This document shows, piece after piece, positions 545 to 5,763 of a DNA stretch of 16,496 nucleotides. Location of the stretch: NCBI GenBank assembly GCA_964342815.1, contig CAYFHS010000033.1:1-16496 (forward strand), read 5' to 3'. The translations under genes and the position numbers were made by a program. Origin of the DNA: an uncultured archaeon. Lineage in GTDB: Archaea > Thermoplasmatota > Penumbrarchaeia > JASLWR01. The notes beneath the pieces are model-generated. The model did not search any database. It was given only the letters and a program-made list of their open reading frames with translations, and was not told the DNA's origin. Within the stretch, counting starts at the first letter, position 1. Every line of letters begins with the position of its first letter.

Positions 545-2395
545 ATGGGACATCTGTTCAAGAAAACTGGTGATATTATAGTCCCCAAAGACCACGGTGG
601 CAGTCCGGAGGCTTTATGGAATGATGAACCCGAAAAAGGGGATGATGGCGATCACTCCATCGGGATAGGGTCTCAAAATATTAAACTCAAGGACCTTTCA
701 ATAAAAGAACTCTACGATAGAATCGATCTTAACAAAAAGACGATCCGGAAGATAATCAAGAGATACCGTAAAAGATATACGAGGTATCGTTACAGACCCG
801 TGGTATTTGCCGTATTGGGATTATTTCTCATCTCCTTCAGCTTCGTGTGGAATCTGCTCATCCTTCCCAGCATGATGGTAATACCCGACGGAATGGAAAT
901 GGAGATCGAGCTCGAGGGAAAAGCCAGAATAATAAACGAAACCGACGGTAGTTTTTCCACCGATAACATTACTGCTACCCTTTCCACAGCATTTGGGGAA
1001 AGCCGAGGGAACAACATAGATGTTACCCAGACGCTGAGCCTAATCAACATGGATACCGGGGAAGACCTGATAAAGAAGTACGAGGGGTTGATGGAGAGTA
1101 CGCGTGATCTTACGGTGGACCGCCGCACCGGTGAAATAGTTGGTGGCGGTTCGGGCCAGATGCTGCTGCCCATGGGAAATATCGAAAAGACGGATTACAA
1201 ATTCTTCAATATCGATACAAACTCCACCGGGATAATTCGATATACAGGGGAGGATGAGAGGAACGGCCTCGATACCCTTGCATTCGAGATGTCCCTTGAA
1301 GGGCAGTACCTGGGACAGTACAAGGCGTCCGGGCCGGTTCCGGCAACCGATATATTCGTCAACGGTAACACAAAATACTGGTTCGAGCACAGAACAGGCA
1401 TCCCGGCAGACGCGGAAAGGGAGATGGAACTTTACATCGATCTCCCCAACCTGAAAAAGATACCGGACGATCTCGTGCAGCAGCGGATACTGCTTGGAAA
1501 CGCCACCCTGGTGGATATGAACGACACCACCCAGACAAAATATATCAGAATGATGGTGCTTATGAACATGAGCACTATACGACAGTGGGGGAAGAACGGC
1601 GAGATACTGGTGGTCTGGGAGAATATGACCGGCTATGACGCCGATACGGGAGAAAAACTCCCTGAAGTTTATCAGTTACCGATCTACGAGAGACTTTTGA
1701 GCGTGAACCAGCTGACGGCCAAACACATAAACGAGCCTAAATTGAAGAGTACGGAAAAGTATCATGAGCGTGAGGGGCAGTGGATGTTTCCCTTCGGAAA
1801 GATCGATCCCAACATCACAAGCTACAAGTGGTTCAACCAGATAACGAATACCACCATGGACTGCGTTCTCAAGGGAAGGGAATCCCATGAGGGAGCCGAC
1901 TGCTACCGCTATCGTATCGAGGGGGAGAATTACCAGATGAAACCTCAGGATTCCAAGCTTGAGAACATGATAATGATATTCGATGGATTTCTGGATTACT
2001 GGGCGGATGCCGAGACCGGGCTGATACATGACACGCACATCAATTTCACCTTCAGCGTTCTCAGCGTGAACAAACCGGATGACTTCGCGAACAAGACCAG
2101 GCTGGCCTCCGCAGACATCTCAATGAGTTCCGAAAGTATCGCCGAATCACTTTCAAACCTTACCCAGGCAAGAGGTTTCTTCCCGTATTCAGGGAAAAGA
2201 TTGATCGTGTTCAAGGCCCAAATGAGTCTGTCTGAAGCCTCCAGCAAAGAACTATCCGATACTGCCGGATCGTTTTCAACTCAGTTATTGTTCGGAGAAA
2301 CCATTGTCCCCTATTCGTGTGCCGCCGTGGGCACGGCTTTTTTACTGGTCGGAGGGTACTGGAAGAGAAAAAGGGATATTTTCTATCTAGAATGA
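545..2395 (+). CDS. Two-TM membrane protein with tandem DUF3068 (PorA-family)-like ectodomains
   Basis: 616 aa ORF. N-proximal TM (VVFAVLGLFLISFSFVWNLLILP) and C-terminal TM followed by KRKR. Two internal repeats carry DUF3068-like motifs: LTVDRRTG / LSVNQLTA, LPMGNIEKTDYKFFN / FPFGKIDPNITSYKWFN, GEDERNGLDTLAF / GRESHEGADCYRY, YWFEHRTG / YWADAETG. Many N-x-S/T sequons lie between the TMs. Confidence 0.7.
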   Translation: MGHLFKKTGDIIVPKDHGGSPEALWNDEPEKGDDGDHSIGIGSQNIKLKDLSIKELYDRIDLNKKTIRKIIKRYRKRYTRYRYRPVVFAVLGLFLISFSFVWNLLILPSMMVIPDGMEMEIELEGKARIINETDGSFSTDNITATLSTAFGESRGNNIDVTQTLSLINMDTGEDLIKKYEGLMESTRDLTVDRRTGEIVGGGSGQMLLPMGNIEKTDYKFFNIDTNSTGIIRYTGEDERNGLDTLAFEMSLEGQYLGQYKASGPVPATDIFVNGNTKYWFEHRTGIPADAEREMELYIDLPNLKKIPDDLVQQRILLGNATLVDMNDTTQTKYIRMMVLMNMSTIRQWGKNGEILVVWENMTGYDADTGEKLPEVYQLPIYERLLSVNQLTAKHINEPKLKSTEKYHEREGQWMFPFGKIDPNITSYKWFNQITNTTMDCVLKGRESHEGADCYRYRIEGENYQMKPQDSKLENMIMIFDGFLDYWADAETGLIHDTHINFTFSVLSVNKPDDFANKTRLASADISMSSESIAESLSNLTQARGFFPYSGKRLIVFKAQMSLSEASSKELSDTAGSFSTQLLFGETIVPYSCAAVGTAFLLVGGYWKRKRDIFYLE

Positions 2396-2790
2396 TCCAG
2401 TACGAACTTGTAACCGTAATGTATGGTACCGCTGACACCGTCCTCCGATACACGCCTGAAAACGGAACGAACCCTGCTCCCTATTGCCAGATCACCGTTC
2501 GTGCAGTCGGTTATTTGCCCCAGGACGCTGGGCCCTTCGTCCAGCTCTATTATGGCCAGATGATAAGGCACCTGACTCTCGAAGTCCGTGGGAGCCTCAT
2601 GGACCGTGGTGTGGGTAAGTATGGTCCCCCTGCCCGATAATTTTTCCGGGATCATCTGATCGATGGATACACGCCGGCATATCTTGCATATCTCCTTTGG
2701 CGGGAAAAAAACCGTTCCGCACAGCGGGCATTTCGAGCCCACGAGGTTGTAGCGTATCGGTATCTCTCTCCAGAATCTTGGAATGGTCAT
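2383..2790 (-). CDS. DUF35 Zn-ribbon/OB-fold protein, scaffold subunit of the thiolase/HMG-CoA synthase complex
   Basis: PRFWRE N-terminus, CPLC...CKIC Zn ribbon, OB-fold segment (GTILTHT...PYHLAIIELDEG..VLGQI) and C-terminal GTIHYGYKF. Directly downstream of the thiolase and HMGCS genes. Confidence 0.93.
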   Translation of the reverse strand: MTIPRFWREIPIRYNLVGSKCPLCGTVFFPPKEICKICRRVSIDQMIPEKLSGRGTILTHTTVHEAPTDFESQVPYHLAIIELDEGPSVLGQITDCTNGDLAIGSRVRSVFRRVSEDGVSGTIHYGYKFVLDHSR

Positions 2791-3957
2791 CTATACCGCC
2801 TCCATCACGTGAATGACTGCAGTCCCGCCGGAGCCACCCATGTTATGTGTCAAACCGAATCTGGCATCGTCCACCTGTCTCTTTCCGGCCTTTGCCTTCA
2901 ATTGGTGATATATCTCCACCGCCTGTGCGATACCCGTGGCGCCAAGCGGATTTCCCCTGGCCTTCAGACCACCGGAGGTGTTTATGGGAATATCCCCGCC
3001 CAGTTGGGTCCTGCCGTCGTCCACGGCTTCGCCACCCTTCCCCTTCTCCACAAAGCCCAGATCCTCCATGGCCATCAGCTCGGAAATGGTGAAAGAATCA
3101 TGTACTTCCGAGACATGGATGTCACTTATGGCGACTCCGGCCATATTCAAGGCCCGCTGCGCAGCGACGTTTGTGGCATTGCAGGTGGTAAGCGACATCC
3201 TGTCATGCAGGGCCAGTGAATCCGTTGCCATTCCCACCCCCTTGATTATCACGGGCTCGGAAGTATATTCTCTTGCCTTCTCGAGCGAGCATAGCACCAC
3301 CGCTGCGGCTCCGTCCGAAATGGGTGCGGCTTCCAACGTAGTCAGGGGTTCGCATACCATGGGAGAAGCTAGAACTGACTCCAGAGTCACCTTGAAGGGA
3401 AATTGGGCTTTGGGATTCAGTGAGCCGTTGTAATGGTTCTTCACTGCAACTTTGGCGATCTGCTCCCTTTTGGTCCCATATTCGTGCATGTGCCTGCGCG
3501 CCATCATGGCCCAGAGCGACGGTTGGGTCGCACCGAAAAAGCACTCCCACTCCTGGTCCACACTGGAAGCTATGGTATCCACGATACTCGCACCGGGCAG
3601 GTCGCTCATCTTCTCGGCCCCGCCCACAACCACCACGTCATAGATACCCGAAGCCACGGCGGAGAAACCCTGTGCAAGGGCCAGACCGCCTGCCGCATCA
3701 CCTCCCTCCACCCGGATCGCCGGGGTGTTGTTTAGCGTCAATCCAACCTCCTCCGCCACCAGAGAAGCGATATGTTCCTGGCGAATGAACAGACCCGAGG
3801 CCATGTTTCCGATGAACAGCGCGTCTATGTTCTTGCCCTGAATGCCCGAATCCTGTATAGCTTCGAGCCCTGCCTCGATCCCGAGCCTCTTGAACGATTT
3901 ATCCCAGATTTCCTGAAAGCGGGTAATGCCGGTGCCGAGTATCGCCACTTCTCTCAT
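2791..3957 (-). CDS. Archaeal/SCP2-type thiolase-fold protein (acetoacetyl-CoA thiolase homologue) with substituted catalytic residues
   Basis: 388 aa. Thiolase motifs VVVVGGAEKM, KVAVKNHYNGSLNPKAQF, APISDGAAAVVL, EVHDxFT, INTSGGLKARGxPLGATG and GLTHNMGGSG are present. The catalytic positions read D87, S288 and N336 instead of C, C and H. Confidence 0.93.
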   Translation of the reverse strand: MREVAILGTGITRFQEIWDKSFKRLGIEAGLEAIQDSGIQGKNIDALFIGNMASGLFIRQEHIASLVAEEVGLTLNNTPAIRVEGGDAAGGLALAQGFSAVASGIYDVVVVGGAEKMSDLPGASIVDTIASSVDQEWECFFGATQPSLWAMMARRHMHEYGTKREQIAKVAVKNHYNGSLNPKAQFPFKVTLESVLASPMVCEPLTTLEAAPISDGAAAVVLCSLEKAREYTSEPVIIKGVGMATDSLALHDRMSLTTCNATNVAAQRALNMAGVAISDIHVSEVHDSFTISELMAMEDLGFVEKGKGGEAVDDGRTQLGGDIPINTSGGLKARGNPLGATGIAQAVEIYHQLKAKAGKRQVDDARFGLTHNMGGSGGTAVIHVMEAV

Positions 3958-5010
3958 CTACTCACCCTCCATCTTGTACTTCTTGAGATTCTTGGCGTAG
4001 GTTCCGTAGTCCACCAACCGATAGTTCGAGATCCAATGACTGATAGTCTTGTTTATCCTCTTCCTGAAAGTTTCTATCCCGGAGGTGACCGTGATGTCGA
4101 ATCCATCGGCCCCCGCCCCCGAGCCGTATGATACGACGAATATCCGGTCCCCCGGATTTGCATCGTCCAGTATTGAAGCGAGACCGATAAGGGTGGCTGC
4201 AGAATAGGTATTCCCTATCTCCTTGACTATAAGACCCTTTGCGAGCTGCGACGGTGTGAAACCGAGCATCTTTCCGGCCTTCGAAGGGAATTTGCTGTTC
4301 GGCTGATGGAAAACGGCATAATGGTAGTCATCGGGAGTGGTTCCGACGGCGGATAACAGCTCTTTCCCACAGGAGACAACATGTCTGAAATAGGCCGGCT
4401 GGCCGGTGAACCTCCCTCCATGGCTGGGATACTTCATCCCTCCACGTCGCCAGAAATCGGGGGTGTCAGTGGTGAAAGACACGGTATGGTTTATGGTGGC
4501 GATGGTGTTCTCGATGCCGATGATAAAGGCCGCGGCACCGGCTGCGGCAGTGTATTCGAGAGCGTTCCCGGGGGCGCCCTGAGCGGTATCGGTCCCTATG
4601 GCCAGGGCATATTTCACCATTTTCGACATTACCAATCCCATAGAATTCTGCATTCCTGCGGTACCGGCCTTGCAAGCGAATTCCATATCCGCCGCCATCA
4701 ATCCGGGGGTGGCTTCGAGAGCTTCTCCCACTATGGTGGCTGTTGGTTTTACGGCATAGGGGTGCGATTCGGAGCCTACGAATATGGCACCTATGTCCTG
4801 TGGATCGATCCCCGCTCTTCTCAGCGCGGAGCGCGATGCCTCAACTGCCATGGTGGCCGCATCCTCGTCCTGGGCCGGGACTGATTTCATTTTCACACCA
4901 AGCGCTCGTCCGATCTCCAAACCGTTCCGGCCCCACTGACTGCCAATACTTTCGGGAACTATCCTGTAAAACGGAATATATGCGCCGTAGCCAACTATAC
5001 CTGCATTCAT
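3958..5010 (-). CDS. mvaS: Hydroxymethylglutaryl-CoA synthase, archaeal type
   Basis: Catalytic motifs are intact: VGSESHPYAVKP (Glu), DMEFACKAGT (Cys), FHQPN (His). Also TDTPDFWRR, HGGRFTG, GNTYS and SYGSGAG. AAGGAG RBS upstream. Confidence 0.96.
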   Translation of the reverse strand: MNAGIVGYGAYIPFYRIVPESIGSQWGRNGLEIGRALGVKMKSVPAQDEDAATMAVEASRSALRRAGIDPQDIGAIFVGSESHPYAVKPTATIVGEALEATPGLMAADMEFACKAGTAGMQNSMGLVMSKMVKYALAIGTDTAQGAPGNALEYTAAAGAAAFIIGIENTIATINHTVSFTTDTPDFWRRGGMKYPSHGGRFTGQPAYFRHVVSCGKELLSAVGTTPDDYHYAVFHQPNSKFPSKAGKMLGFTPSQLAKGLIVKEIGNTYSAATLIGLASILDDANPGDRIFVVSYGSGAGADGFDITVTSGIETFRKRINKTISHWISNYRLVDYGTYAKNLKKYKMEGE

Positions 5011-5061: not shown

Positions 5062-5763
5062 TCATATTTTCTTCAGCCGCGCCAGCAGTTCACTTAATTC
5101 GAGAGGGGTCTGTCCGAGATAGACGTTCTCGATACTTGCTATCTTCTTAGCCAGTCGGTCAATACTTTCCGGACGCTGATAGATGACCGCGGCGGGGGTC
5201 ATTGGATGCGCCCTTATGGCCACCATGGGTGAACGTCCCATCACCACATCGGAAAAAATCAAACATCTCTCGCTGGACCATCCGTATATCTGGTGGTAGT
5301 CGGAAGAAGAAAAGTTAATAATGGCCTTCAATGAATCGATCACGGTGTAGCCCATTATGTCCTTGTTTATTCGGGGTTGGACAAGTATCTTCCCGTCGAT
5401 AATTTTAATGAAATCCCCCATTTTCATGGGGCAGGCAAATTCCTTGATATCGAGAATTGCATCGGGCTTCTTTTCGAAAATGAAGTTCTTTGCCACCGGT
5501 CCCCCTCTTTCCTTGTCAATGGCAACGAAGGCTTCCACGAACATCTTTATGGTGTTTATCCCGGGCGAAGGCCTTCGACCGCTCTCATAGTCAGAGATAT
5601 ATGAGGGGGTCCTGTCGGTAAACCTGGCAAGCTCCGATGGGGTGATGTGAAATATCTCCCGCCATTTCTTGAGAGTTTCGTTGGGTTTACGGGACATGAC
5701 CAGCTCGCCAGCAATTCTTTGTTTCAAACCGCTACTCATCAGAGAGATGAATGTCTCATCCAT
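5062..5763 (-). CDS. XRE/Cro-type HTH transcriptional regulator, COG1709-like archaeal family
   Basis: N-terminal RIAGELVMS..P.ETLKKWREIF...ELA......PSYISDYESGRRPSPG HTH. C-terminal GYTVIDSLKAI...YGWSSERCLIFS.V.MGRSPMVAIR is characteristic of this family. Confidence 0.88.
   Translation of the reverse strand: MDETFISLMSSGLKQRIAGELVMSRKPNETLKKWREIFHITPSELARFTDRTPSYISDYESGRRPSPGINTIKMFVEAFVAIDKERGGPVAKNFIFEKKPDAILDIKEFACPMKMGDFIKIIDGKILVQPRINKDIMGYTVIDSLKAIINFSSSDYHQIYGWSSERCLIFSDVVMGRSPMVAIRAHPMTPAAVIYQRPESIDRLAKKIASIENVYLGQTPLELSELLARLKKI

Follow-up and report, generated by a model that had tools for sequence, protein, structure and literature searches.

A thiolase-fold subunit lacking the catalytic residues in the mevalonate-entry operon of a Thermoplasmatota clade, a probable pseudoenzyme partner of HMG-CoA synthase

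Introduction

The first step of isoprenoid-lipid synthesis is unfavourable, and the solution ascribed to archaea in general is channelling through a complex of thiolase, 3-hydroxy-3-methylglutaryl-coenzyme A (HMG-CoA) synthase (HMGCS) and a DUF35 protein. The closest solved system is the Methanothermococcus thermolithotrophicus complex (PDB 6ESQ and 6ET9; Vogeli et al. 2018, via PMC12960953), and the same source, as cited there, reports that archaeal HMGS is inactive and the acetyl-CoA acetyltransferase (ACAT) insoluble when each is expressed alone. Here we analyse a window of 16,496 nucleotides (contig CAYFHS010000033.1 of assembly GCA_964342815.1, from an uncultured Thermoplasmatota archaeon) that carries the same gene trio. 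Its thiolase-fold protein (gene at positions 2791-3957, minus strand) is orthologous in fold to the M. thermolithotrophicus thiolase, and its HMGCS and DUF35 partners are highly similar to those of the methanogen complex and intact. Unlike the methanogen enzyme, however, it has replaced the nucleophilic Cys, the Cys of the HDCF motif and the His of the GHP motif, and it scores below the equivalog cut-off. This Cys-less complex thiolase is a variant of a known archaeal system that is apparently undescribed in the literature searched. The first-pass annotation of this DNA had not recognized the variant from the literature, and our full-text search likewise found no description of a Cys-less archaeal complex thiolase, exceptions in the supplement of Vogeli 2018 not being excluded.

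Several proteins with a fold of the SCP2-thiolase type lack the nucleophilic Cys, including those of Ltp2-ChsH2 (6OK1), Sal-Shy (9MYR) and TbSLP (5AB4), and both Ltp2 and Sal pair with DUF35. These proteins differ from ours in having conserved replacement catalytic residues and defined activities, and their similarity to it is E 1e-38 or weaker. In our protein the replaced positions are variable, the partner is HMGCS, and DUF35 stands alone rather than being carried on a hydratase. Closer in sequence is ST0096 of Sulfolobus tokodaii (PDB 4YZO; E 3e-73), which lacks both cysteines, with Ser at the nucleophile position and HDMA in place of HDCF, but comes from a different phylum and keeps the GHP His. 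A solved structure of a Cys-less member thus already exists; no functional study of ST0096 or 4YZO was found in the literature searched.

In type II polyketide synthases, the chain-length factor (KS-beta) is a disabled paralogue that its active condensing partner requires. The parallel with our protein would be a catalytically disabled paralogous subunit that is obligatory for an active partner, although the chain-length factor belongs to a different branch of the thiolase superfamily and has a defined role in decarboxylation or chain-length control. A second parallel comes from PhlACB (5M3K), MucABC (9VBO) and the PfACAT/HMGS-DUF35 complex (PMC12960953), which share the tripartite architecture and the retention of one residue-less subunit as a structural partner. 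In these bacteria, the HMGS-like subunit is dead, the ACAT-like subunit is live and the complex works outside the mevalonate pathway (PMC12960953, a 2026 paper), whereas in our operon the ACAT-like subunit appears dead, HMGS is live and the pathway role is apparently kept. By analogy, our subunit would work most like a pseudoenzyme partner such as PhlA/MucA or the chain-length factor.

Results

The thiolase open reading frame (ORF) is free of stops, encodes 388 amino acids (aa) and carries a Thiolase_N and a Thiolase_C_1 domain. Among solved structures, the closest is 6ESQ_A from the M. thermolithotrophicus complex (E 2.3e-111 over residues 1-385, HMMER alignment). In this alignment D87 occupies the place of the nucleophilic Cys (VEAACAS in 6ESQ_A), S288 that of the HDCF Cys and N336 that of the GH(P/A) His, and only the HDxF His survives, as H286 (codon CAT, 3102-3100). 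The first-pass annotation had assigned all four residues in this way, and both the codons and the alignment bear it out. The positions concerned, with the two partner genes, are as follows:

2791..3957, minus strand: thiolase-fold subunit of the SCP2/archaeal type without the catalytic Cys residues (388 aa; D87/S288/N336 instead of C/C/H), probably non-catalytic
3697..3699, minus strand: codon GAT, Asp87, at the nucleophilic-Cys position by alignment to 6ESQ_A
3094..3096, minus strand: codon TCT, Ser288, at the position of the HDCF Cys by alignment to 6ESQ_A
2950..2952, minus strand: codon AAT, Asn336, at the position of the GHP His by alignment to 6ESQ_A
3958..5010, minus strand: archaeal HMG-CoA synthase with the tetrad E81/C113/H235/N267 intact, from its 6ESQ_I match and NCBIfam equivalogs
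2383..2790, minus strand: DUF35 scaffold protein (Zn ribbon plus OB fold), from its domain match and 6ESQ_E match

The fold is intact, because an AlphaFold2 model of the thiolase built with 52 homologues (mean predicted local distance difference test score, pLDDT, 91) superposes on 6ESQ_A with a template-modelling (TM) score of 0.97 and a root-mean-square deviation of 1.2 Å at 47-48% identity. Among the family models, the protein scores 531.6 bits against the NCBIfam equivalog NF053570 (AcCoTHIOL_METTL), under its 600-bit cut-off, and passes only the subfamily model NF004720 ('thiolase domain-containing protein'). Since all three catalytic features and the equivalog cut-off are failed, it should not be named acetyl-CoA acetyltransferase. 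With C/C/H replaced, the known mechanism cannot perform the first, channelled half-reaction.

HMGCS matches 6ESQ_I (E 1e-125) and stands above both archaeal equivalog cut-offs (NF003274, 530 bits; TIGR00748, 513 bits); the stand-alone DUF35 protein (135 aa) matches 6ESQ_E (E 9e-34) and has a four-Cys CxxC...CxxC ribbon. The three genes abut, with TAGATG at both the HMGCS/thiolase and the thiolase/DUF35 junctions and GGAGG a few bases upstream. The intact HMGCS tetrad, the intact Zn ribbon and the coupling of the three genes thus all stand as first described. A search of the source genome for a second HMGCS found none, and HMG-CoA reductase is present; with that reductase and a sole HMGCS in the genome, the operon represents the entry to the mevalonate pathway.

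The loss of the cysteines is an old trait of a whole clade and not a peculiarity of the source genome, a point that the first-pass annotation had missed. Judged by its nearest protein matches, the source genome belongs with MAGs of Thermoplasmatota. In 61 canonical orthologues, the three catalytic columns are C, C and H in 100%, 98% and 100% of sequences, respectively, and this near-invariance means that three simultaneous replacements are not chance variation. The same D/S/N triplet occurs in a same-genus genome (G001) that was assembled independently and encodes a 93% identical protein, which excludes an assembly error. A conserved D/S/N signature, which the earlier annotation had suggested looking for, is not shared by the rest of the family: the other two genomes of the family have G/T/H and S/A/N. 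Across the class, an orthologue was retrieved in 25 of 30 relatives, at most one per genome, and the HMGCS-thiolase-DUF35 order is kept wherever flanks are present. Cys is absent from both cysteine positions in all 25 of these proteins, with the proviso that L031 is truncated ahead of the nucleophile site. That site holds D, S or G, the HDCF Cys position S, T or A, and the GHP His is mostly retained.

A wider survey, using one genome per species, added 80 further named loci. Methanogens, Hadarchaeota, Micrarchaeota, Iainarchaeota and bacterial copies have C/C/H, as do three metagenome-assembled genomes (MAGs) of Thermoplasmatota, and MAGs of Thermoplasmata and Methanomassiliicoccales have G/N/Q, G/N/F, G/D/N, G/A/R, S/C/Y and similar triplets. 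In a maximum-likelihood tree, 43 Cys-less proteins form one clade (support by the SH-like approximate likelihood-ratio test, SH-aLRT, 97), beside which a long-branch sequence labelled as proteobacterial sits without a resolved placement. Of these 43 proteins, 20 have G, 16 have D and 7 have S in place of the nucleophile; the GHP position is H, Q, N, D, Y, F or R, and triplets found elsewhere in the clade include G/N/D, G/N/Q, G/D/Y and E/N/H. For a Methanomassiliicoccaceae copy, the nucleophile is replaced by Gly in all 120 closest relatives, among them the proteins named for cultured Methanomassiliicoccus luminyensis and for Ca. M. intestinalis, both G/N/D. In a wider sampling, public sequences clustered at 50% identity gave 136 representatives, with the nucleophilic Cys kept in 91 and absent in 45, and a FastTree phylogeny of this set requires 10-14 changes between Cys and non-Cys states, so losses recur in the wider family.

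A few loci show intermediate states. A Methanophagales MAG (L064) has C/S/H, with the nucleophile kept and the HDCF Cys gone, and two Thermoplasmata MAGs (L049 and L077) have S/C/Y and S/C/Q, with the nucleophile gone and the HDCF Cys kept; the three positions are therefore not always lost together.

Selection on the Cys-less thiolase is as strict as on its partner. For pairs with a usable synonymous rate, the ratio of nonsynonymous to synonymous substitution rates (dN/dS) is 0.04-0.09 in Cys-less thiolases, 0.03-0.13 in the HMGCS partner and 0.02-0.07 in canonical methanogen thiolases, and it is 0.039 between the source protein and that of G001. The dN/dS check that the earlier annotation had proposed thus shows purifying selection, indistinguishable from that on HMGCS and close to that on canonical methanogen thiolases. 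The number of columns conserved in at least 95% of sequences is also nearly the same, 115 in the canonical set and 113 in the Cys-less set. The Cys-less set has lost the conservation of 16 columns that the canonical set maintains (87, 288, 289, 336, 132, 136, 145, 146, 149, 198, 211 and five others), and homology with SCP2-type thiolases suggests that these are catalytic or pocket positions. H286 and D287 of HDxF, E84, N372 and the SGGLK and GxP loops stay invariant or nearly so.

No alternative nucleophile emerged. The first-pass annotation had raised the prospect of a relocated Cys, but C139, C202 and C259 are not conserved in the Cys-less clade and were rejected; C223 is common in the clade, yet it is also present in 18 of the 61 canonical proteins and was rejected on that ground.

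HMGCS and DUF35 show no relaxation in Cys-less operons, and the E/C/H/N tetrad of HMGCS is intact in 95 of 95 partners. A single HMGCS site covaries with the state of the thiolase. Of 54 operons with an active thiolase, at least 95% encode Glu at position 41 (codon 4888-4890), and 40 Cys-less operons encode A, S, M, R, C or Q there, with Met in the source sequence, which hints that E41 may serve a function linked to the thiolase side of the common CoA site.

The source genome contains other, Cys-intact thiolases, as the earlier annotation had proposed to check. A classical AtoB/PhaA-type enzyme of 392 aa (C88/H349/C379) lies on contig C5 at ~51.1-52.2 kb, matches the Clostridium acetobutylicum thiolase (E 3e-130) and heads a thl-hbd-crt-bcd cluster in which genes for 3-hydroxyacyl-CoA dehydrogenase, crotonase and acyl-CoA dehydrogenase come after it. 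A second classical-type thiolase with C/H/C is found at ~125 kb on the same contig, and an SCP2-type thiolase with C/C/H adjoins its own DUF35 and short-chain dehydrogenase/reductase (SDR) genes on contig C2. Directly downstream of the thl-hbd-crt-bcd cluster, at C5 ~55.2-58.2 kb (L003:245-3211), are two thiolase-fold paralogues without catalytic residues, one with G/P/N and the other with D/R/N motifs, and then a DUF35 gene plus a further ORF that is a candidate DUF35-like gene; this group resembles the aldol-lyase modules of the Ltp3/Ltp4 type.

Every Cys-less genome that could be checked has another Cys-intact thiolase, usually of the classical AtoB/PhaA type, which is distributed as follows:

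Source genome and 30 same-class relatives: 28/31
Methanomassiliicoccales MAGs: 4/5
Other Cys-less MAGs (L036, L043): 2/2
Methanomethylophilaceae genomes at least 90% complete: 30/30
Archaea with a canonical operon thiolase (methanogens, Hadarchaeota, Micrarchaeota, Iainarchaeota): 1/10, in Methanoperedens
Canonical Thermoplasmatota MAGs: 3/3

Two of the three same-class genomes without the AtoB type are incomplete and have genus-mates that carry it, and the third (G012) has three SCP2-type paralogues with C/C/H. In G012, a single-contig 3.58-Mb Thermoplasmata genome, the SCP2-type C/C/H thiolase beside DUF35 (G012:C1:680945-682084; L133:1046-2188) is well conserved except for one in-frame TAG at codon 52 (L133:1199-1201), where the paralogue in the source genome has an aligned Val. 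Possible causes are an error in sequencing, a newly formed pseudogene or recoding. In the ten canonical comparison genomes, which were chosen from loci at hand and are not a random sample, the operon thiolase is the sole thiolase in nine.

In the 30 Methanomethylophilaceae genomes (1.2-1.7 Mb), no thiolase-family gene was found besides the AtoB-type gene and the one in the operon. Seven of them, with hits on contigs of 0.7-1.7 Mb, combine a classical C/H/C copy with an operon copy of G/D/Y, G/T/H or E/N/H. The classical copy has the same gene layout around it in the five genomes inspected; in two annotated genomes it neighbours TiaS and an M20 peptidase, in the fully scanned one of these also FtsY, prefoldin and Cdc6, and no beta-oxidation genes were found beside it in either. 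Such housekeeping neighbours fit a biosynthetic role for the classical thiolase. Its named close homologues are mostly from Thermoplasmatota, with a few bacteria at similar identity.

Discussion

In the operon described here, the thiolase-fold protein is probably a pseudoenzyme, kept as an obligate structural subunit of HMGCS and DUF35 while acetoacetyl-CoA is supplied in trans. The first of two explanations offered by the first-pass annotation, a pseudo-thiolase acting as a scaffold or CoA-site partner with acetoacetyl-CoA from elsewhere, thereby gains support from several directions: purifying selection equals that on HMGCS, relaxation is confined to catalytic and presumed pocket positions, and both the source genome and nearly all Cys-less relatives encode a classical thiolase that is Cys-intact. 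Moreover, variation of the catalytic positions within a single family argues for loss of catalysis rather than for new chemistry.

Ancestry, fold and gene context make this protein the thiolase subunit of the archaeal thiolase/HMGCS/DUF35 complex, originally its acetoacetyl-CoA thiolase, and catalysis would have been lost once, early in a large Thermoplasmatota clade that already owned a classical thiolase. The classical enzyme could have made the complex thiolase catalytically redundant, after which the active site would have decayed, with small or polar residues replacing one another at the three catalytic positions. Strong selection would nevertheless retain the subunit if HMGCS needs both the thiolase fold and DUF35 to assemble into an active complex. 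The inactivity of HMGS and insolubility of ACAT when expressed alone, as cited in PMC12960953, give a reason for keeping a dead partner, and by analogy it is reasonable to infer that a dead thiolase fold serves as an obligatory partner of HMGCS. Acetoacetyl-CoA would then be made in trans by another Cys-intact thiolase, for which the AtoB/PhaA-type enzyme on contig C5 is the main candidate and the SCP2-type thiolase/DUF35/SDR cluster on contig C2 a second possible source.

Some observations weigh against this interpretation. For every Cys-less member, loss of catalysis is predicted from sequence. The near-invariance of the HDxF His and Asp, E84 and N372 leaves room for some ligand binding or residual chemistry, and Asp, as the commonest state of the nucleophile position in the source class, could have a specific role there. 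The link between Cys loss and the classical thiolase rests on essentially one loss event and is a matter of consistency, not a statistical test; because both enzymes are intact in three Thermoplasmatota and in Methanoperedens, the classical thiolase can have been at most permissive. Finally, giving up the channelling of an endergonic step looks costly.

A related, unlikely possibility, which refines rather than opposes the pseudoenzyme reading, is that the subunit is non-catalytic without being inert: its former pocket could bind acetoacetyl-CoA or CoA and pass it to HMGCS through the shared CoA site, or it could dock the classical thiolase or act as a regulatory sensor. The retained HDxF His and Asp, E84, N372 and the SGGLK and GxP loops would be consistent with such roles, as would a conserved-column number equal to that of active enzymes, and the variability of HMGCS E41 only in Cys-less operons suggests functional coupling of the two subunits. 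However, ligand binding and docking are both conjectural, and relaxation at 132, 136, 145, 146, 149, 198 and 211, presumed pocket positions conserved in at least 95% of canonical enzymes, fits poorly with a preserved, specific acyl-CoA pocket. It is quite improbable that the complex still makes HMG-CoA from acetyl-CoA (or with malonyl-CoA) in the absence of the thiolase Cys, for example with the HMGCS Cys serving both condensations and a remodelled thiolase pocket holding the second substrate, or that the Cys-less subunit is a dedicated receptor that docks the classical thiolase and so rebuilds the channel. New chemistry, the second explanation in the first-pass annotation, which had envisaged an Asp/His mechanism, is improbable as well, whether it involves an Asp or Ser nucleophile, decarboxylative condensation of malonyl-CoA or an aldolase reaction like those of Ltp2 and Sal. 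The HDxF His is kept, Asp and Ser are potential nucleophiles, and the active Cys-less folds of Ltp2-ChsH2 (with DUF35), Sal-Shy and TbSLP are among the structural neighbours. The candidate catalytic positions are nevertheless unconserved, across the 43-member clade and even among the genomes of one family, Gly cannot act as a nucleophile, and the genomic context is a sole, intact HMGCS, not a hydratase-DUF35 fusion.

Repurposing of the whole operon out of the mevalonate pathway, as in the bacterial PhlACB and MucABC acyltransferases, would have precedent in bacteria, where HMGS/ACAT/DUF35 assemblies have come to serve a different function (PMC12960953), and PhlA, PhlB and PhlC are detectable homologues of all three proteins. 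We consider it very improbable, as the bacterial complexes have a dead HMGS subunit and keep the ACAT Cys, the reverse of the arrangement here, and as the HMGCS of this operon exceeds the archaeal equivalog cut-offs, keeps E/C/H/N, is the only one in the genome and is accompanied by HMG-CoA reductase. An artefact of sequencing or assembly, or recent inactivation of a gene that is now being lost, would be conceivable in a fragmented, MAG-like assembly (4.35 Mb in 116 contigs, 89% complete), and either outcome would have undone the first-pass interpretation. The identical D/S/N triplet in G001, the uninterrupted ORF, the low dN/dS against that genome and the spread of the trait across a deep clade leave this explanation next to no chance, and we rejected it.

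More broadly, if a dead subunit is indeed present across a Thermoplasmatota clade that includes M. luminyensis and gut Methanomethylophilaceae, channelling of the first step would not be universal in archaea. The first committed step would depend instead on a bacterial-type thiolase, a functional displacement that leaves a pseudoenzyme scaffold behind, and the automatic annotation 'acetyl-CoA C-acetyltransferase' (as in JGI names) would probably be wrong, affecting metabolic reconstructions. Should the complex instead form HMG-CoA without the Cys or dock a classical thiolase, it would represent a new route into archaeal isoprenoid-lipid synthesis. Cys-less operons are also a natural experiment that could separate the thiolase subunit's other contributions to HMGCS from its catalysis.

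Additional observations

Elsewhere in the window, positions 545-2395 (plus strand) encode a 616-aa protein that matches Pfam PorA (PF11271, E 2e-37, in two stretches), which is unexpected in an archaeal genome. On the other side of the operon lies one further gene:

5062..5763, minus strand: XRE-type helix-turn-helix (HTH) protein with an uncharacterized C-terminal domain, from its HTH_3 match; candidate regulator

Searches with tblastn place the gene for this 233-aa protein upstream of HMGCS in ~75 loci, with Cys-less as well as canonical thiolases, that span Thermoplasmatota, methanogens, Hadarchaeota and Micrarchaeota. The module thus has a fourth gene that is widely conserved, and its product is a candidate for regulating entry into the mevalonate pathway.

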